A stretch of DNA of 64,000 bases from Phycisphaerales bacterium JB054. Its GTDB lineage: Bacteria > Planctomycetota > Phycisphaerae > Phycisphaerales > UBA1924. The notes under the pieces are model-generated. The model did not search any database. It was not told the origin of the DNA and saw only the letters and a list, made by a program, of their open reading frames with translations. Each line of letters starts with the position of its first letter. Positions within the stretch are counted from its first letter, which is position 1. The stretch spans positions 25,520-89,519 of the forward strand of contig JBICHP010000016.1 in NCBI GenBank assembly GCA_043100935.1, read 5' to 3'. Of this stretch, positions 4,730 to 58,378 are shown in pieces. Both the position numbers and the translations under genes were made by a program.

Positions 4730-5227
4730 ATGCACAGGGCAAAGAGTGGACGTAACGCCGCGCGGCTGGCCGCCGCGTCGGCAACCGCAATAGTACTCCA
4801 TTTCGGAGCAACCGGGTCCTGCGGAGGTATTTTCCTGCCGCCAACCGGCGAGCAGATGGCGCCAGTGCCACTCGCCGTCACGGAAAGCAGGGCGGATTGG
4901 GCAGACTGGCTGGAGTTTGTGCTCATGCTCCACCGACTCGAGATGATCCTTGCCGATCCCGCAGCCGAGCCGGACGGCGACGACGACAAGATCCAGGCAG
5001 ACGCGGTCGCCCGCGCCAAAGACCAAACCACCCGTCTCGGGCAGTCCGGTCTTCGCGCAAGCCTCTCAGCGTCACAAATCGATGGGGGTTTTTCCGCAAT
5101 CGATGAACTGCGAGACACCATCTACGACCACGCGCAGAGCTTCACAGATCCCTTCTGGAACAACTATCTCCAGACACTGAACATGCTGGAAGCAGAACTC
5201 GACGACCGAGCAGCCGGGGCTGCATGA
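4730..5227 (+). CDS. Hypothetical lipoprotein/secreted protein
   Basis: ATG at 4730 with AAGGAGG at 4714-4720. Signal-like N-terminus (AARLAAASATAIVLHFGATGSCGG). Acidic, protein-like composition. Divergent from the sigma-factor gene. Confidence 0.55.
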   Translation: MHRAKSGRNAARLAAASATAIVLHFGATGSCGGIFLPPTGEQMAPVPLAVTESRADWADWLEFVLMLHRLEMILADPAAEPDGDDDKIQADAVARAKDQTTRLGQSGLRASLSASQIDGGFSAIDELRDTIYDHAQSFTDPFWNNYLQTLNMLEAELDDRAAGAA

Positions 5228-24084: not shown

Positions 24085-25482
24085 ATGCCGCCGCCACCAC
24101 AAGCCCAAATCAGCCCCGCCACGCGCCGCGACCTCCGACTCATCACTGTCGACGGGCTGTTCTACTGCCTCATGGTCGGGTGCGGCGAGGCCTACTTCGG
24201 CGCCTTCGCCATCGCCATGGGCATGCACGAGATCCTCGCCGGGCTCATCGGCTCGGTCCCCCTCGTCGTCGGCGGCACGCTCCAGCTCGTCACGCCCGTC
24301 ATGGTCCGTCGCCTCGGCTCGCTCCGCCGCTGGGTCGTCCTCTGCGCCACCATCCAGGCGTGCAGCTTCCTGCCGCTGGCCATGGGCGCCTACCACGGCA
24401 GCATGCCCGCGTGGCTGATCTACCTGGCCGTCAGTCTCTATTGGACGGTCAACTACGCCCAGGGCCCCGCCTGGAACACCTGGGTCGCGACCCTCGTCCC
24501 CGACCGCATCCGCGCACGCTACTTCGCCAGGCGCACCCGCATCATCCAGCTCGGCACCGTCGTCGGCCTGCTCGGCGCCGGCACCGCGCTCAACCTCGGC
24601 AAGGGCAACCCGGACAACTCCGCCGCCGTCGGTGTCTTCGTGATCCTGTTCCTCTCCGCGGCCGCGTTCCGGTTCTACGCCAGCCGGTGCCTGGCCGCCC
24701 AGTCCGAGCCCGAGCCCCTGCCGCGGAACTTCCGCTCGGTCTCGCCGAGGCAGTTCCTCGCCCGCTGGCGCACCGGGCACGACGCCCGCCTGCTCGGCTA
24801 CATGCTGCTGGTGCAGATCGCCGTGCAGACCTCCGGGCCCTTCTTCACGCCCTTCATGCTCGTCCGCCTCGAGCTCAGCTACGCCACCTACATGGTGCTC
24901 ATCGCGGTCTCGTTCGTCTCCCGCATGGTGGTGCTGCCCTTCCTCGGCCGTCTCGCCCAACGCCGCGGCCCGCGCGCGGTGCTGCTCGTCGGCGGCCTCG
25001 GGCTCATCCCCGCGTCCTCGCTCTGGGCCTTCGGCGACAACTTCTGGTACCTGCTGGCCATCCAGGCGTTCTCCGGCGCGGTGTGGGCCGCCTACGAGCT
25101 GGCCACCTTCCTCCTGCTCTTCGACGCCATCCCCTCCAACGAGCGCACCAGCGTGCTCAGCATGTTCAACTTCGCCAACACCCTCGCGATCGTGATCGGC
25201 TCGCTCGCCGGCGCAACGCTGCTCGGCCTGCTGGGCGAGGGCATCGCCGCCTACCACACGCTCTTTATCATCTCCTCTGGCCTCCGCGTGCTGACCATCC
25301 CGCTGCTGCTGCTCATCCACGTCCGCTCGTTCCGGCCCAAGCCGATCGAGCTGCAGCCCATGAGCGTCCGCCCGGGCGTCGGCGCGGTCGATCGGCCGGT
25401 GCTGGCGGGCGTCGAGGACGACGCCGAGGCCGACGCGTCGCGGGAGGGCGAAGAGGTCGGGGCGGCCGGGGCCGGCGGCTGA
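24085..25482 (+). CDS. MFS-type transporter
   Basis: About 12 predicted hydrophobic helices with Arg/Lys-rich short loops (VRRLGSLRRW, LAQRRGPRA) in the MFS motif-A position. Same strand, 75 nt after the BFD-like gene. Confidence 0.75.
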   Translation: MPPPPQAQISPATRRDLRLITVDGLFYCLMVGCGEAYFGAFAIAMGMHEILAGLIGSVPLVVGGTLQLVTPVMVRRLGSLRRWVVLCATIQACSFLPLAMGAYHGSMPAWLIYLAVSLYWTVNYAQGPAWNTWVATLVPDRIRARYFARRTRIIQLGTVVGLLGAGTALNLGKGNPDNSAAVGVFVILFLSAAAFRFYASRCLAAQSEPEPLPRNFRSVSPRQFLARWRTGHDARLLGYMLLVQIAVQTSGPFFTPFMLVRLELSYATYMVLIAVSFVSRMVVLPFLGRLAQRRGPRAVLLVGGLGLIPASSLWAFGDNFWYLLAIQAFSGAVWAAYELATFLLLFDAIPSNERTSVLSMFNFANTLAIVIGSLAGATLLGLLGEGIAAYHTLFIISSGLRVLTIPLLLLIHVRSFRPKPIELQPMSVRPGVGAVDRPVLAGVEDDAEADASREGEEVGAAGAGG

Positions 25483-25589
25483 GCCCCGCGGTCACGAGGA
25501 GCGGACGCCCGGCACGCCGGGCCTGAGAAGCCGTCGGAGCACACCGGACGCCGAGAACACTTCCCGGACCAAGGGCGTTGGCGAACCGG

Positions 25590-25757
25590 CCATCGAACCT
25601 CGGGAGCGGGCCTTCGAACCTCGGGAGCCGGCCGTCGAAGTCCGGGAACCGACCCTCGAAGGCGGGCGACCCACCTTCGAAGATCGGGAGCCGATCTTCG
25701 AAGATGGAGAGCTGATCTTCGAAAGTCGGGAACCAACCTTCGAAGGTCGGGAACCGA
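25590..25757. repeat. Intergenic tandem array, 8 units of exactly 21 nt centred on TTCGAA/CTTCGAAG palindromes
   Basis: Units start at 25590, 25611, 25632, 25653, 25674, 25695, 25716 and 25737, with a degenerate ninth at 25758. Consensus approx CCTTCGAAGNTCGGGAGCCGA. TCGAA keeps a fixed phase in every unit. Confidence 0.9.
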
Positions 25758-25884
25758 TCTTGCGTGATACGGACCTACCTCCCGGCCCTGTGAACCCCGC
25801 GGGGGCGATCCGCCGCCGGAAGCCCGCTCGGCGCGTCCGAAAACTCCCGCCACCCGGGCGCGACCGGCCGGTATACCTCGCACA

Positions 25885-27678
25885 GTGCCGCTCCCCCAGG
25901 CCAACCTCGTCCTCTTCTTTCTCGCCGGCTTCGTCGCCCTTTGGGGCGTCAGTGTCGTTCTCCGCGGCCTCTCCGGCTCGCGTGACACCGCCAGCCGCCG
26001 CTGCCCCCAGTGCCGGGCCGACATGCTGGGCCTCACCGGCCGCCGCTGCCCCGAGTGCGCCTTCGAGGCCGCGAGCGAGCGGGACCTGCACCGCCGCCGG
26101 CCCGACCGCCGCGTCGTCGCCGTCGGCGCGCTCGCGACGGCCGTCGGCTGCGCCCTCATCCCCATCGGGATCTCCGTCCGCAGCTGGGAGACCACCGGCT
26201 ACGCCGACAACACCGACCTCCACCCGCTCAACGCGCTGTTTGCGGGCGTCACCGCGTTCGCCGTCGTGCTGCTGGTGTGGGCGGTGCGGGGCGACCGGGC
26301 CAAGGGCAGGCGTCGCTGCCCCGAGTGCTGGTACGACATGCGCGGCACGCTGCCGACGGCGGCCGTCGCGACCGATACCGCGGATGACCGCGACCAGGCT
26401 CGTGCGCCAAACCTCTTGTGCCCCGAGTGCGGCCACACCGCCGCGACCGACCGCGAGCTCTACAAACCCCGCCGCCGCCCGCGCCTCGCGCTGCTGGCCG
26501 TCGCGATTGTCTTGCTCAGCTTCTACGGCCAGACCGTGCCGCGGGCGCTGCGGACAGGCCCGCTCGGCCTCGTGCCGACGACGGTGCTGATCGGGGGGAT
26601 GCGGTGGTTGCCGGAGGCGTGGTACGTCGACGGGAGCCGCGCCAACCGGGCCACGCTCCAGGCCCGAGTCTGGGACGACGACGTGTGGGGGTGGCAGCGG
26701 GCGTGGGGCCGGGCGGCGGCACTTCGGAGCCTTGAGAGCGGGCGGTTCGTGCAGCACCCGTCCGCGGCCGCGTCCATGCTCGATGTGCAGCAGATCGACG
26801 ACCGTGAGCGCGCGATCCGGGCGACGCTCCGGCTGTTGAACGACCCGGACCGCGCCGCCGCCACCGACGACGCCACGGCGTTGCTGGAGGCGATGGGATC
26901 GCTGCTGTGGCTTCCCGGCCGCGACGTGGAGAGCACGCGGGCCGAGGAGATCCGCGGCATGGTCGCGGCCGCCGAGCCCATGCTCTCCAAGCGGGTGCGG
27001 AAGGGGACCGAGGCCGAGGCGGCCATCGCCATACAGCTCTTCTGGATGGTCGATCCGCGCGACGCGGACTGGGTCCCGGCGGTCGCCGAGCGAGCGGTGC
27101 ACGGCGGCAAGCCCACGGTGAGGATGGCGGTGGGACTGCTCATCAGCACCGCCGACTCGGACCCGCGGGCAGTGCACGCGATCGAGGCCGCGTTGTCGAG
27201 TGGGAGCTTCCCAAAGTGGGCCCAGAGCGGGCTCAGAATGTCCAATCCCGCCGTTTCGAGCGATCGGGAGGCCGACGCCTTTCTCGCGATCGTGGCGTCC
27301 TCGACCGACCCCGAGGTCGCCCGACTTGTAGCGGAGGCGTTCGTCGGGGTCTCCTTCGAGGTCGAACCGTACGCGGAGCTGATCCGGGCGGCCCGCCAGC
27401 CCGACGCGGTGCGTGCGGGCTTTGCGGAGTCCTGGGGCCTCGGAGTCTACTTGGGGGTCAAGGACGCCATCGAGCTCGTGCTCCCGGCCGCGGCCAACGC
27501 CGACCCCGAGATCCGCGATCGTGTGCTCTGGTTCCTGAAGGAACACCCCGAGCACCTCGCCCCACACCGCGACGAGATCCTGCCGGTGGTCTCCCCGCTC
27601 GCCAAGGACGAGGACAAGGTCACCGCGCAGATGGCCGCCGAGATCATGGCGGCGCTCGACGCGGCCGCGAATGACTGA
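25885..27678 (+). CDS. Membrane protein with two CPxC...CPECG zinc ribbons and C-terminal HEAT-like repeat domain
   Basis: GTG at 25885 and an N-terminal TM. Ribbon 1 is RRCPQCRADMLGLTGRRCPECAF...RRRP followed by TM. Ribbon 2 is RRRCPECWYDMRG...LLCPECGHT...KPRRRP followed by TM. The C-terminus is helical-repeat (DPEIRDRVLWFLKEHPEHL...). Confidence 0.7.
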   Translation: MPLPQANLVLFFLAGFVALWGVSVVLRGLSGSRDTASRRCPQCRADMLGLTGRRCPECAFEAASERDLHRRRPDRRVVAVGALATAVGCALIPIGISVRSWETTGYADNTDLHPLNALFAGVTAFAVVLLVWAVRGDRAKGRRRCPECWYDMRGTLPTAAVATDTADDRDQARAPNLLCPECGHTAATDRELYKPRRRPRLALLAVAIVLLSFYGQTVPRALRTGPLGLVPTTVLIGGMRWLPEAWYVDGSRANRATLQARVWDDDVWGWQRAWGRAAALRSLESGRFVQHPSAAASMLDVQQIDDRERAIRATLRLLNDPDRAAATDDATALLEAMGSLLWLPGRDVESTRAEEIRGMVAAAEPMLSKRVRKGTEAEAAIAIQLFWMVDPRDADWVPAVAERAVHGGKPTVRMAVGLLISTADSDPRAVHAIEAALSSGSFPKWAQSGLRMSNPAVSSDREADAFLAIVASSTDPEVARLVAEAFVGVSFEVEPYAELIRAARQPDAVRAGFAESWGLGVYLGVKDAIELVLPAAANADPEIRDRVLWFLKEHPEHLAPHRDEILPVVSPLAKDEDKVTAQMAAEIMAALDAAAND

Positions 27679-27693
27679 CCGTACCCTCCCCGC

Positions 27694-28428
27694 ATGTCCA
27701 CCCCCCTCCGCCTCGCCATGTGGTCCGGCCCGCGCAACATCTCCACCGCGATGATGCGATCCTTCGAGAACCGCCCCGACACCGCCGTCGTGGACGAGCC
27801 GCTCTACGCCCACTTCCTCCACCACACCGGCATCGATCACCCCGGTGCGGCCGAAGTGATCGCCGCGGACGAGACCGACTGGCACGCCGTCACCGATCGC
27901 CTCCTCGGCCCCGTCCCCGGCGACAAGCCCATCTACTACCAGAAGCACATGGGCCAGCACCTGCTGCCGCACATCGACCGCGCCTGGATCGCCTCGCTCA
28001 CCAACTGCTTCCTCATCCGCGATCCCCGCGAGGTCATCACCAGCTTCATCAAGGTCGTCGAGCGGCCCACGGCCGAAGAGCTCGGCCTGCCGCAGCAGCT
28101 CGAGCTCTTCGAGGCCGAGCGGGCCCGCACCGGCCGCACACCGCCCGTGATCGACTCCCGCGACGTGCTTGAGAACCCCCGCGGCGTGCTCTCCAACCTC
28201 TGCGACGCCCTGCACATCCCCTTCGACGAGTCCATGCTCGCCTGGCCCCCCGGCCCGCGAGACACCGACGGCGTCTGGGCGCCCTACTGGTACGACAACG
28301 TCCACAAGTCCACCGGCTTTGGCACCTACACCCCCAAGCCCGACACCGTCCCCGACGACCTGCAAGAGGTCTACGAGACCTGCCAACGCTGCTACGAGGC
28401 CCTCGCCCCGCACCGCATCCGGGCCTGA
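27694..28428 (+). CDS. Sulfotransferase-fold/P-loop-like family protein (function unknown)
   Basis: N-terminal MWSGPRNISTAMMRSF resembles a PAPS 5'-phosphosulfate-binding loop. Globular, protein-like composition throughout. Family recollection only. Confidence 0.55.
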   Translation: MSTPLRLAMWSGPRNISTAMMRSFENRPDTAVVDEPLYAHFLHHTGIDHPGAAEVIAADETDWHAVTDRLLGPVPGDKPIYYQKHMGQHLLPHIDRAWIASLTNCFLIRDPREVITSFIKVVERPTAEELGLPQQLELFEAERARTGRTPPVIDSRDVLENPRGVLSNLCDALHIPFDESMLAWPPGPRDTDGVWAPYWYDNVHKSTGFGTYTPKPDTVPDDLQEVYETCQRCYEALAPHRIRA

Positions 28429-28537
28429 GCCCGCCTGGGGGGCAGTCCGCGGGCCAATCCCCATCGCGGCGGAACCCGGCTCGCGCCGGCGGGTACCACC
28501 CGGGACCACCCTCGCCCCGGCCCCCCGGAGACACGCC

Positions 28538-29350
28538 ATGCCCGCACACTCCCGCCGCACGTTCCTCGCGACCGGCTCGCTCGGCTGCGCCGCCCTCACG
28601 TCGTCGGCCCTCGCCGGCTTCTCCGCCACCCAGACCGCTCCGCGATCCGCTCCCGCCCCGGACGAGACCTACCCGACCACGCCCGCCGCGCGCGCACAGG
28701 ACTTCGTCGGCGCATCCCACTTCAACATGGAGCGCGTCGAGGCGATGCTCACCGAAGACCCCGGTCTGGCCAAAGCCGCCTGGGACTGGGGCTTCGGCGA
28801 CTGGGAGACCGCCCTGGGCGCCGCCTCCCACACCGGCCAGATCGCCATCATCGAGCTGCTCATCGCCCACGGCGCCCGCCCCGACCTCTTCACGCTCGCC
28901 ACGCTCGACCGGATCGACGCCCTCCGCCCGATTCTCGAGTCGATCCCGGGCACCGACGCCCTCGAGGGCCCGCACTCCATCTCGCTCTACCGCCACGCCG
29001 CGTCTGGCAAGGCCGAACGCGTGATGGAGTACCTCGACGCCAAGGGCCTCAACCCGCCCAACCCCTTCGAGACCGATCCCGAGACCGCCCGGCCGCTGGT
29101 CGGTGCCTACGCGTGGAGCCCCGCCGAGACCGACCGGTTCGAGGTGACGTGGTTCGACCGCCTCACCTGCCTCCAGCTCAAACGCCCCGGCGGGGTGGCC
29201 CGCAATCTCATCCCGCTCGGCAACTCCAGTTTCTCGCCGGCTGGCGCCCGCCACGTGGTGCTCTCGTTTACGCACGAGGGCGAGCAGGCGACGCAATTGC
29301 TCGTGCCGCAGATCCGCGGCGTGCTCAACTGCGCACGGACCCAGGGCTAG
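28538..29350 (+). CDS. Tat-signal ankyrin-repeat protein
   Basis: Twin-arginine signal (SRRTFLATGSLGCAALTSSALA). Ankyrin-like repeat (TALGAASHTGQIAIIELLIAHGARPDL). ATG at 28538. Confidence 0.6.
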   Translation: MPAHSRRTFLATGSLGCAALTSSALAGFSATQTAPRSAPAPDETYPTTPAARAQDFVGASHFNMERVEAMLTEDPGLAKAAWDWGFGDWETALGAASHTGQIAIIELLIAHGARPDLFTLATLDRIDALRPILESIPGTDALEGPHSISLYRHAASGKAERVMEYLDAKGLNPPNPFETDPETARPLVGAYAWSPAETDRFEVTWFDRLTCLQLKRPGGVARNLIPLGNSSFSPAGARHVVLSFTHEGEQATQLLVPQIRGVLNCARTQG

Positions 29351-29423
29351 GCGGCTCAAGAATCAACAGGCCACACCCGTGCCGCGACGATGAAGCTGAA
29401 AGCACACATCGCGGAGGGGACAC

Positions 29424-30650
29424 ATGCTCGACGAGATCATCAGATGGACGGCCCTCGGCGTCGGGGCTTTCGGCTTGGCCGTCGTCGTCATCGCGTGGCG
29501 GACCCGCCCCCGGGGTGATCGGCGTCTCTGCCCGGGATACGCTCGCTCGGTGCGGTCGCGGCTTCACCCGGCGCGGGCGCTCTTCCGCTATCGATGCGGA
29601 TACGACCTCGCCGGCTCGCCAAGGCAGGACGGTCTCGTCCGGTGCTCGGAGTGCGGCCGGACGCACGACCCGGCCGACCTGCTCCGTCCGGGCTCGCGAC
29701 TCCGGCTCGGGGCGGTCGGCTCCCTGATGCTCATCGCTGCGAGCGGCACGCTGCTGGTGCCGTGGTTCCAGAGCGGCAGGTGGGCCCGCGCTCTGCCCAC
29801 GCTGGCTCTGGTCGTCGTGGAGAATCCGTACCGGACAGAGGCCAGCGAGGACATCCGTGAGGAGGTCTCCCGCCGGGTTCGAGACGGCGATATCGAGGGC
29901 GTGTCCGCCCGCATGCTCGCAGGCCGCGTTGCTCCGCAACTTCGCGGCGATACCCGCCGAGGGAACGCCGAACGGGCCGAGTCGATTCTTAGAAGCCTCT
30001 GGCCCGAGTCCCGGCGGGAACTCGAAGCCCTGCTGACCGAAGGGGACGCCCAGGCCCGCGTGCTCGCGGCCGCGATACTCCGGCGGCGGTGCCCGAACGA
30101 CCCGCCATGGGCCCTGCTCGAAGCCTGCATCGAGGACATCGGCTCCTGTCCCCCCGGGGTCAGCGCCTACATGCGCTGGGGAAAGTGCAGCGATGCCGCC
30201 GAGTTCCTGCGAGCGCACGCTGTGCGCGCCCATCCGCTGCTCGAATCGGCCATGCACGACCCGGACCCGCACCGCCGGCTCGTCGCCGCGGCCGTGGTCG
30301 GGTACGCCGGTCTCGCCGACCTCGCAGCCGCCGCCGCGCCGATCCTCATCTCGCACCTCGCCGACAACAACGTCTCGGGCGACGCCAAGCTCGCCATCCC
30401 CGCCCTCTTCCGGCTCGGGCCCGCCGCCCGCCCCGCGCTCCTGGCCAGCACGGACGCTCCCGATCCTCAGCAACGCCAGGCGGTCCGCGCGCTCCTCGAA
30501 CTGCTCGACACGCCCGAGGCCCGCGACTGGCAGCTCGAGACGCCGATGCCCCGAGTCACCCTGCTCACCAACGACCCCGCCCGCACGCTCAGCCTCAGTC
30601 GCGCCCTGAGCGACCTGCACTTCCGAACACCGCCACCTTCCCGCGACTAA
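29424..30650 (+). CDS. Membrane zinc-ribbon protein with HEAT-like repeats (paralog of 25885..27678)
   Basis: N-terminal TM, then YRCGYDLAGSPRQDGLVRCSECGRTHDPADLLRP, then TM. HEAT-like repeats follow (DPDPHRRLVAAAVVGYAG, DAPDPQQRQAVRALLELL). Confidence 0.7.
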   Translation: MLDEIIRWTALGVGAFGLAVVVIAWRTRPRGDRRLCPGYARSVRSRLHPARALFRYRCGYDLAGSPRQDGLVRCSECGRTHDPADLLRPGSRLRLGAVGSLMLIAASGTLLVPWFQSGRWARALPTLALVVVENPYRTEASEDIREEVSRRVRDGDIEGVSARMLAGRVAPQLRGDTRRGNAERAESILRSLWPESRRELEALLTEGDAQARVLAAAILRRRCPNDPPWALLEACIEDIGSCPPGVSAYMRWGKCSDAAEFLRAHAVRAHPLLESAMHDPDPHRRLVAAAVVGYAGLADLAAAAAPILISHLADNNVSGDAKLAIPALFRLGPAARPALLASTDAPDPQQRQAVRALLELLDTPEARDWQLETPMPRVTLLTNDPARTLSLSRALSDLHFRTPPPSRD

Positions 30651-41032: not shown

Positions 41033-41734
41033 TCACGCCGCCAGCGCGGGCCGCGCCGCGCCACCGCCGCGCGTCCCGAAGCGGACGGTGTGCTGCGCCG
41101 GCGTCCCCCGCGCGGTCGAGCGGAGGGCGGTGATCTGGTAGGTCACGCGGCCGCCCCCGCACCCATCGGCCTCGGCGAGCGCCGCGGCGGGGATGTCGCG
41201 GTCGAGAAACTTTCGTTGGCCGACGGTGGCGACGAGCGTCATCGGCCCGCCCCCCACGCCGCCGATCGACCGCCGCACCTCGTAGACCGTCCCCTCGCTG
41301 CGCGCCGGGTTGTTGCAGTCCCACGCCAGCTCGATCGCGCCGTCCTGCAGCAGCTTGACGCGGAAGCGCGTCGGCGTGCCCGGCGGGGGCACGGCGCTGC
41401 GCGTCTTGGGCGGCGGCACCTGCGCGAGCGCGTAGACCCCGGCGTCGTCGGTCGTCTCGGCGTGGTTCTTGATCGCCGCGAGCATGTCGCTGCCCGCCCC
41501 CGGCCCGCCGTGCATCGCGGCCACCGCGTTGTGGAACCGCTCGGTCGCGGCCATCGCCGCCTGCCGCGCCGCGAGCATGTCGGCGTGGGCCTCACGCGCC
41601 TCGACGGTCAGCGCCGCGAGCTGCGTCACCGCCGGCTCGGTCAGCCCGATCGCCGCGGCGTGCGCGGCCCACGGGTCGATCCGCGTCTCGTAGAACTCGA
41701 CCTTGTCGATCGGACGGCGTGGTGTGGTGGCCAT
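41033..41734 (-). CDS. Hypothetical protein with C-terminal fibronectin-III-like domain
   Basis: ATG at 41734. Helical N-terminal half, then an FN3-like beta segment (PTRFRVKLLQDGAIELAWDCNNPARSEGTVYEVRRS...YQITALRS). The longer GTG start at 41956 would translate the 21-nt repeat array. Confidence 0.5.
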   Translation of the reverse strand: MATTPRRPIDKVEFYETRIDPWAAHAAAIGLTEPAVTQLAALTVEAREAHADMLAARQAAMAATERFHNAVAAMHGGPGAGSDMLAAIKNHAETTDDAGVYALAQVPPPKTRSAVPPPGTPTRFRVKLLQDGAIELAWDCNNPARSEGTVYEVRRSIGGVGGGPMTLVATVGQRKFLDRDIPAAALAEADGCGGGRVTYQITALRSTARGTPAQHTVRFGTRGGGAARPALAA

Positions 41735-41827: not shown

Positions 41828-41995
41828 CACCCGTTCCCGACGCCTGAGAACCCGTGACGGGTCACCCGTCACGGGTTCTCCGCGGCCGGTCACGGGTGAT
41901 CTGCGGCCGCGCACGGGTGCCCGGTCGCCGCGAACGGGTGCGATGCGGCGATGCACGGGTGTTCCGACGTCGCGGAAGGGTGAACGGTGGCCGAG
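41828..41995. repeat. Intergenic array of 8 units phased at 21 nt built on CACGGGTG / CACCCGT, containing a perfect 35-nt palindrome (41846-41880)
   Basis: Motif starts at 41828 (cacccgt), 41849 (aacccgt), 41870, 41891, 41912, 41933, 41954 (c/aacgggtg) and 41975 (gaagggtg), all exactly 21 nt apart. GAGAACCCGTGACGGGT-C-ACCCGTCACGGGTTCTC is self-complementary. Confidence 0.9.
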
Positions 41996-42240
41996 AACAG
42001 GCCACCGGCGAGCGCAGCGGCATCACTGCGCGGGGAGGAAAGGAGAGGTGGAGGAGAGGGGGGAGGCCGCGAGTGATGGCACCCGGGGATTTGGGCCGCC
42101 CGCCGCTGGCTCGCTAAGGGCAACCTCATTCGCGATCTGTCACCGCGAAGTAACGGCCGCTCTCACGGGCGTTCGCGATCTTCGAAGATGCCTGTAGAGT
42201 GCCGAAGAGGTCACACCCACTCGGATTGAAAGGTATCGTC

Positions 42241-50652: not shown

Positions 50653-50767
50653 GTAGAGCCCCTCGCGCAAGCGAGGGGACACGTCTCCCCGATTGAGCCC
50701 CTCGCGCAAGCGGGGGGGCACGCCTCCCGTTTGAGCCCCTCGCGCAAGCGAGGGGGCACGTCTCCCG
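50653..50767 (+). repeat. REP cluster: 3 tandem copies of GAGCCCCTCGCGCAAGCGAGGGG(A/G)CAC..TCCC
   Basis: Copies start at 50656, 50695 and 50733. Each folds as CCCCTCGC-GCAA-GCGAGGGG (8-bp stem, GNRA-type loop). Immediately adjacent to the 3' end of the HUH gene. Confidence 0.9.
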
Positions 50768-50773
50768 TACAAC

Positions 50774-58262: not shown

Positions 58263-58270
58263 ACCGCCCA

Positions 58271-58378
58271 TAGAGCCCCTCGCGCAAGCGAGGGGGCCCG
58301 TCTCCTTAGAGCCCCTCGCGCCAGCGAGGGGACGCCCGCTCCTAGAGCCCCTCGCGCAAGCGAGGGGACCCCTCCCCC
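58271..58378 (+). repeat. REP cluster: 3 tandem copies of TAGAGCCCCTCGCGC(A/C)AGCGAGGGG
   Basis: Copies start at 58271, 58307 and 58343, with the same consensus and orientation as 50653-50767. Lies between the lpxK stop and the convergent transporter stop. Confidence 0.9.

Follow-up and report, generated by a model that had tools for sequence, protein, structure and literature searches.

A chromosomal TTCGAA minisatellite of strict 21-bp period in a Phycisphaerales bacterium and its possible role as an array of phased protein docking sites

Between an MFS transporter gene and the gene for a membrane zinc-ribbon (ZnR) protein, the genome of Phycisphaerales bacterium JB054 (hereafter G000; 3.98 Mb, 68% GC) carries a run of 21-nt units built around TTCGAA, which raises the question whether this run is translated, is a repeat without function, acts as RNA or through DNA structure, or serves as a row of sites for a protein. 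The locus was analyzed within a stretch of 64,000 nt (C16:25520-89519), termed the window, and coordinates given without a contig refer to positions in it. An earlier note on this DNA had described eight 21-nt units and a decayed ninth with TCGAA at a fixed position, and this description was borne out: Tandem Repeats Finder detected an array at 25583-25761 (period 21, 8.5 copies, 76% matches), and reading in register from 25583 yielded nine units of exactly 21 nt each up to 25771, with TCGAA at unit positions 11-15 invariant in units 1-8 (Table 1). The full 8-nt palindrome reported for several units, CTTCGAAG, is present in units 5, 6, and 8, and the GGGA(G/A)CC block spans five of the eight unit junctions, whereas the statement that the array fills the intergenic gap proved too broad, as the gap from the MFS stop codon (25482) to the GTG at 25885 measures 402 nt, of which the array takes up 189. 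A Logan contig (run SRR22428450) is 100% identical to window positions 25599-30178, with its first base inside the array; as this independent contig covers units 2-9, these units are not an artefact of MAG assembly. A search of the JGI metagenomes with the exact array flank gave 0 matches. The GC content of the array is 62-63%, and a weak heptamer signal was detected within it (0.34-0.37 at lags 7 and 14 as compared to ~0.2-0.3 at other lags). The array is a real, non-coding minisatellite with a strict 21-bp period, and it shares the hallmarks of minisatellite/VNTR loci, namely head-to-tail units and, in its sister array on contig C36 (see below), a whole-unit difference in number (8 vs. 9) between relatives.

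Table 1. Positions of the array, its neighbors, and related features (window coordinates unless a contig is given)
Feature	Location	Strand	Remarks
MFS transporter, upstream neighbor	24085..25482	+	Pfam MFS_1, E 7e-21
Eight well-kept 21-nt units	25583..25750	.	consensus GAACCGACC-TTCGAA-GATCGG
Ninth unit, decayed	25751..25771	.	GAACCGATCTTGCGTGATACG, TTGCGT in place of core
GGTATACCTC	25870..25879	+	aligns with conserved GGTAG(A/G)CTGG, 5-6 nt 5' of the ZnR start codon
Membrane ZnR protein with HEAT-like repeats, downstream neighbor	25885..27678	+	member of a multi-copy family
AAF copy in the window	41033-41731	-	array at 41868-41919
Solitary unit core CGATCTTCGAAGATG	42175..42189	.	15/15 identical to unit 6
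Orthologue of the C36 array	G003:C1:2532301-2532473 (L192 about 4994-5182)	.	homologous TTCGAA array
G003-private TTCGAA array	G003:C1:2504435-2504566 (L191 4928-5075)	.	locus array-less in G000

The history of the site shows that the array is young. The MFS stop codon lies 100 nt 5' of the array on the same strand, and an identity look-up of the MFS protein returned no record; the HEAT_2 match of the ZnR protein is weak (E 1e-4, under the Pfam cut-off). The sequence GGTAG(A/G)CTGG before the start of the ZnR gene is common to four species, i.e., that of the window and three others of the genus (G002, G001, and G004). Judged from this conservation we infer a -10-like promoter element, and GGTATACCTC resembles the -10 element of a transcript with little or no leader, which would place the array ~100-290 nt upstream of the ZnR promoter. 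In the same three species the gap between the MFS and ZnR genes measures 12-105 nt and is without an array, and in the closest species (G003) a different gene follows the MFS gene, array and ZnR gene being both absent. The array is thus, on this comparison, a recent lineage-specific gain which arose or landed between the two genes. An ancestral operator of the gene at 25885 was rejected because the same junction is array-less in these three congeneric species. By itself, the window array is a recent insertion of one lineage and probably not essential. The segment from the MFS gene to a sulfotransferase gene (window 25483-27693, as compared to G003:C1:1537700-1542700, L201) is a replacement hot spot, at which G000 carries the array and the ZnR gene and G003 a ~1.4-kb gene with a GDGNVNTQDVLAFLN-type repeat at its end; this type of repeat is common in the genome as an 81-nt repeat. 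In another genus (G074:C1, L025 1501-1647), the stop codon of a ZnR-family gene is followed at ~105 nt by a TTCGAA array, which in turn lies upstream of aspS, and this second adjacency of a TTCGAA array and the ZnR family may be due to chance.

Which positions of the array are kept can be judged from a second locus. The genome-wide search that the earlier note had called for revealed one further TTCGAA array: runs of at least three TCGAA (or TTCGA) at exact 21-nt spacing occur at only two loci in the 3.98 Mb, namely in the window and at C36:12240-12407, between convergent genes. This sister array has an orthologue in G003, a one-contig genome of the same genus with ~90% identity to G000 in aligned DNA, in which it directly abuts a co-oriented gene's stop codon and likewise lies between convergent genes. 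The 128 nt adjoining the orthologous array are 93% identical in the two species and correspond in G003 to the last 33 codons of a gene whose 358-aa product has a PEP-CTERM-like tail, a gene otherwise lost from G000. The array comprises eight units in G000 and nine in G003, the sole indel being one whole 21-nt unit, and indels of 1-2 nt were found in none of the units of four arrays. Between the two species the TTCGAA core differs at 1 of 48 positions and the spacer at 20 of 120, while the neutral yardstick, 1,010 four-fold degenerate sites, gave 79.5% identity (20.5% differ); calculated from these counts, P is ~2e-4 for the core against the neutral rate and ~0.005 for the core against the spacer. 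Unit-specific spacer variants are kept in both species, and homogenization by gene conversion is therefore no explanation for the intact cores. This comparison shows that the TTCGAA core and the 21-bp register are under selection in the sister array, the other 15 positions of the unit drifting almost neutrally. The window array is without an orthologue, and its core and phase are presumed to be constrained by homology to the C36 array, on which the constraint was measured.

The array private to G003 lies ~245 nt upstream of a gene of the AAF family (see below) that is frameshifted or mis-assembled, and in G000 the solitary core at 42175-42189 is the sole copy outside the two arrays. These two arrays reach up to 85% identity over four units and do not share flanks. 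A block copied from one to the other was rejected, since alignments shifted by one or two units score nearly equally (85, 84, and 78%), which indicates that the resemblance stems from the consensus they have in common.

We tentatively propose that the array consists of phased DNA docking sites for a putative sequence-specific protein, a reading which we regard as plausible, if somewhat short of probable, and in which protein binding itself is predicted from sequence. As 21 bp correspond to two helical turns, all cores would face the same side of the helix and could form, at the DNA level, a row of docking sites to which a protein, probably dimeric, would bind cooperatively. The resulting nucleoprotein array would not be dedicated to the neighboring gene, and the ZnR promoter ~100-290 bp downstream would be affected, if at all, only secondarily. 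A kept core and phase together with a drifting spacer, as seen in the sister array, are what an array of phased binding sites would lead one to expect. Moreover, out of 201 genomes in the bacterial family, 7 contain TTCGAA phased at 21 nt, as compared to 0 of 201 for the reversed control AAGCTT. The array of cooperative binding sites suggested by the earlier note thus holds in part: the array is non-coding, with a kept core and 21-nt phase and a nearly neutral spacer in the sister array, whereas an identity as an iteron or partition site finds no support. If the cores are docking sites, the locus would represent a phased nucleoprotein array on a chromosome, outside plasmids, in a phylum in which hardly anything is known of gene regulation, recognizable by its comparative signature of a kept core and phase and a drifting spacer.

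Several observations speak against docking sites. The intergenic share of isolated TTCGAA is 24.5% as compared to 25% for AAGCTT, and that of CTTCGAAG is 9.9%, i.e., there is no intergenic enrichment in the genome; furthermore, pairs of TTCGAA or CTTCGAAG at 21-nt spacing were absent outside the arrays genome-wide. A dispersed transcription-factor regulon was rejected on these grounds, and without dispersed sites the putative factor would have only two clustered targets. A contiguous palindrome of 6 bp is short for a typical helix-turn-helix dimer, the C36 array between convergent genes has no promoter needing control, and the many 21-nt arrays with unrelated cores in the family argue for a generic cause over one protein per core. 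As to candidate readers, TCGA/TTCGAA as the target of a TaqI-type methylase was rejected because the methyltransferase family PF12950 is absent from both array-bearing genomes, G000 and G003.

Among the alternatives, translation of the array into a heptad-repeat peptide, either alone or as an extension of a neighboring gene, is extremely improbable. The period is a multiple of 3, the plus strand reads as EPxFExR and the minus strand, on account of the palindromic TTCGAA, as xPxFEGR with F-E again, neither F-E frame is interrupted by a stop codon within the array, and the residue preceding Glu is always hydrophobic (I/F/V/L). However, ATG, GTG, and TTG are absent from both frames before and inside the array, and, in agreement with the earlier note, the plus heptad frame lacks such a start before the TTG at 25760; it is out of frame with both neighboring genes. 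In a codon log-odds test with 1,094 long ORFs as the training set, the plus F-E frame scored -0.01 and the minus frame a mildly positive +0.28, whereas real genes reach +0.5 to +0.8; codons rare in the genome (GAA, GAT, CCT, GGA, and GGT) are frequent in the plus frame. Glu codons of the genome are 86% GAG, and TTCGAG is ~8 times commoner than TTCGAA at Phe-Glu pairs; TCGAA is kept in 16 of 16 good units of the two G000 arrays, even where C12 and A15 fall on third codon positions, and third positions in general show no excess variability (mean conservation 0.82 vs. 0.76 and 0.80). In the G003 orthologue of the C36 array an in-frame TAG interrupts the EPIFE frame (GAG TAG ATC TTC GAA), and in all six frames of the sister array non-synonymous codon changes between the two species are 2-6 times as frequent as synonymous ones. 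A Pfam search with the translated heptad frame found no match, and a coiled coil is ruled out by the proline in each heptad. The coding reading was rejected on the basis of start codons, codon scores, third positions, the TAG in G003, the substitution pattern, and the lack of a Pfam match. Genuine heptad-repeat genes with TTCGAA-containing units do exist, as in Streptosporangium sp. NPDC023963, where a 173-aa coiled-coil ORF (L066 4138-4659, minus strand; GC3 0.86) consists of MESFEGR and TKVDGLE heptads; this ORF uses TTCGAA in each FE unit despite high GC, and GAA usage alone therefore does not exclude coding.

A selfish or neutral minisatellite, i.e., a short quasi-palindromic unit that came to lie in the gap and multiplied through slipped-strand or hairpin-mediated misalignment, without cell function and with period and core conservation reflecting mutational or amplification bias, is rather unlikely and yet a serious contender. 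It would account for the lineage-specific occurrence at the MFS-ZnR junction and at the private G003 locus, for the difference of one unit between species, for the solitary unit, for the almost neutral evolution of the spacer, and for the many unrelated 21-nt arrays in the bacterial family. By contrast, core divergence of 1/48 against a neutral 20.5% is unexpected without selection, the unit-specific spacers shared by both species exclude homogenization as the cause of the intact cores, and small indels have not accumulated even though units differ by ~25% in substitutions. An element acting at the RNA level is less probable still; the array would be transcribed as MFS 3' UTR or as a leader, and UCGAA motifs or hairpins would bind an RNA-binding protein, or stabilize or terminate the transcript, in a manner similar to REP/BIME elements. 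This is in line with the position on the MFS strand shortly after the stop codon, with that of the G003 sister array directly after a co-oriented gene, and with folding z-scores of -3.9 and -3.3 against shuffled sequence on the two strands, but good fold scores are expected of any palindromic repeat. The consensus holds an 18-nt palindrome, CCGATC-TTCGAA-GATCGG, and a second dyad at the unit junction, GATCGG-GAR-CCGATC; symmetry beyond the TTCGAA hexamer is nonetheless weak, with 3.8 (window array) and 2.4 (C36 array) of the 6 arm positions paired. The arms showed no covariation, and a unit's own right arm fits no better than those of other units (permutation p 0.6-0.75). The kept feature is the core sequence and not a hairpin, as an invariant core with arms that vary uncompensated is the opposite of a selected hairpin. 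Moreover, exact spacing would be needless for single-stranded RNA motifs and yet the phase is strictly kept, Rfam (E up to 1) gave no match at the window or sister locus, and neither a sigma-70-type promoter nor an intrinsic terminator was detected at the array locus with a consensus that may differ from planctomycete promoters. A CsrA sponge, with one GGA per junction, was dropped since most units of the private G003 array lack GGA. A structural DNA element, in which a repeat every two turns gives coherent curvature or wrapping and curvature instead of sequence is selected upstream of promoters, is very improbable. It would agree with the strict 21-, 42-, or 63-nt period seen in arrays that are unrelated in sequence, with the position of such arrays relative to one gene family (17 of 25 upstream, 1 of 25 downstream), and with an array GC below that of the genome; however, the 10.5-nt A/T harmonic is not enriched in 54 arrays of these periods (mean 0.081 vs. 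0.10 expected; window array 0.02), nor is the 21-nt A/T harmonic, and it is a specific hexamer and not a composition pattern that is conserved between species. The simple curvature model, A/T phasing at 10.5 bp, fails on this ground and was rejected.

The window array is one of a broader set of intergenic arrays with periods of 21, 42, or 63 nt that occur in the bacterial family. The other 21-nt phased arrays for which the earlier note recommended a search are present in G000, where long-period intergenic repeats are dominated by periods of 21, 42, and 63 nt (~10 arrays as compared to 1-2 each for 16, 18, and 20 nt). Their cores are unrelated, e.g., TCTTGGCCAAGA, CAGATGA, and CACCCGTG. Within the bacterial family TTYGAR phased four times was found in 18 of 201 genomes. 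Five TCGAA at 21-nt phase occur, among the matches listed, in many phyla, and some of these matches are genuine heptad-repeat genes, so that a 21-nt period alone is not diagnostic; the matches indicate that 21-nt arrays as such are common and carry no information on TCGAA in particular. Two arrays of G000, C36:678797-678959 and C30:26008-26191, share the unit CATCAAGAGCAGATGATGGCT (which reads HQEQMMA); the former is 92-95% identical to its G003 orthologue, above the neutral 79.5%, and may represent either a small His/Met-rich heptad-repeat gene missed by the crude gene caller or a constrained non-coding array. In G120 (C79, L036 2262-2395), a FabF-like ketoacyl-ACP synthase gene contains an in-frame 21-nt repeat, HGASAAA, in ~6 copies, and three more 21-nt arrays are located in the 2 kb upstream of it. 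Heptanucleotide arrays (GGGCAAT / CCCATTG and variants) were observed at no fewer than nine, i.e., at least nine, intergenic loci of G000, including C33:18834-18963, C17:388808, C9:18882, C16:2595, and C16:4222, and some of them adjoin 21-nt arrays, as upstream of an AAF gene on C27 and beside the array at C36:12240.

Many of these arrays accompany a gene family that we here name AAF, a multi-copy family of ~215-aa proteins with a C-terminal FN3 (fibronectin type III) domain. Its members consist of long N-terminal helices with the motif VEFYExRIxPW..AAIGL, a YxLAQIPPP linker, the FN3 domain, and a C-terminus ending in ...LAA. The FN3 assignment is supported by a PDB profile match (3mpc, E 3.7e-6) and by Foldseek FN3 matches, the AlphaFold2 model having a pLDDT of 79; no family was found for AAF in Pfam, NCBIfam, or PHROGs. 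Of 61 genomes sampled, 25 contain AAF genes, the copy number reaching 45 in a single genome. Each of the four G000 copies is preceded, at a distance of 90-450 nt, by an array with a period of 21n, and among 25 informative AAF loci of the bacterial family, 17 have a 21/42/63-nt array within ~1 kb upstream and one has it downstream. The array upstream of the AAF copy in the window consists of four to five 21-nt units with a CACCCGTG core and the terminal inverted repeat ACCCGTGACGGGT / GACCCGTCACGGGT. TTCGAA-type arrays lie upstream of AAF genes in four genomes (G003, G142, G074, and G120), and the window and C36 arrays have no adjacent AAF gene. The AAF protein itself was rejected as the reader of the arrays: no DNA-binding fold was recognized in it, and the fact that close AAF paralogues carry unrelated arrays makes this role unlikely.

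The association of AAF with arrays is a new lead. It might reflect a general and undescribed class of bacterial cis-elements, strict 21-bp arrays in which core and phase would be selected while the unit sequence turns over by locus and which in this family would be tied to AAF upstream regions, a generalization that is at present doubtful. If true, it would imply machinery that recognizes the phase, such as a DNA-binding protein that forms filaments or a system silencing or insulating variable gene cassettes. This wider pattern of 21/42/63-nt arrays and AAF matters more than the window array alone, and the defined pairing of a gene family with arrays makes the question "why 21 bp?" testable.

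Phased direct repeats are known from plasmids, e.g., the 22-bp iterons of R6K and pPS10, the 11-bp repeats of parC of R1, and the four 20-bp repeats of parC of pSK41 bound by the ribbon-helix-helix protein ParR; iterons are tandem direct repeats of 17-22 bp spaced at about two helical turns, and both they and the type II/Ib partition repeats serve as cooperative binding sites of a sequence-specific protein. The array described here resembles them in its head-to-tail direct repeats of about 20-22 bp (9 x 21 nt) with sites on one face of the helix. It differs from them in that no rep, parA/parM, or parR/parB gene is adjacent, the neighbors encoding the MFS_1 and weak-HEAT proteins, in that neither an AT-rich unwinding element nor a DnaA box lies near the array (TTWTNCACA is absent from the whole 64-kb window), and in that only 5-6 bp per unit are conserved. 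Additionally, the locus is chromosomal, its flanks being syntenic with the G003 chromosome. On account of the missing rep and par genes and DnaA box and of this chromosomal location, the iteron or partition identity considered in the earlier note is not supported.

Chromosomal repeats offer further comparisons. REP/BIME elements are intergenic, quasi-palindromic short units of 20-40 bp that can fold into a hairpin and that are often located at gene 3' ends or between convergent genes, some of them in tandem, and REP sequences occur in tens to hundreds of dispersed copies with a GTAG/CGTC tag and a link to RAYT transposases (PMC3733652). The TTCGAA array is likewise intergenic and composed of quasi-palindromic short units. 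Contrarily, its genome holds only two arrays and one solitary unit, the head-to-tail period is strictly 21 nt, the arms of the window and C36 arrays are poorly complementary and do not covary, and the GTAG/CGTC tag is lacking. Tandem REP-like hairpins, GCCCCTCGC-GCAA-GCGAGGGGC, were observed at 50656-50768 and 58264-58375 of the window and at many other loci in the genome; this GCAA-loop REP family is separate from the TTCGAA units and has a different sequence. The BrickBuilt minisatellite MITE of Porphyromonas gingivalis is a 23-nt tandem repeat without spacers, intergenic and 49-591 nt from coding sequences; it comprises leader and tail subunits ending in inverted repeats and occurs 19 times per genome (PMC4596501). 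Similarly, the TTCGAA units form an intergenic tandem repeat of ~20 nt at several loci. In contrast to BrickBuilt, there are only two arrays and no flank is common to the loci; a MITE structure was rejected, as no flank similarity was found among the four TTCGAA arrays.

Finally, the tandem repeats of contingency loci, among them those of 7 bp in front of hmw1A/hmw2A of Haemophilus influenzae, are short and near-perfect and precede genes of multi-copy, surface-type families. The 21-nt units are only ~76% alike, unlike those of contingency loci, and slippage should therefore be slow. The likeness to contingency loci lies in the position of the arrays with a period of 21n upstream of the multi-copy AAF genes, where copy number could tune expression.
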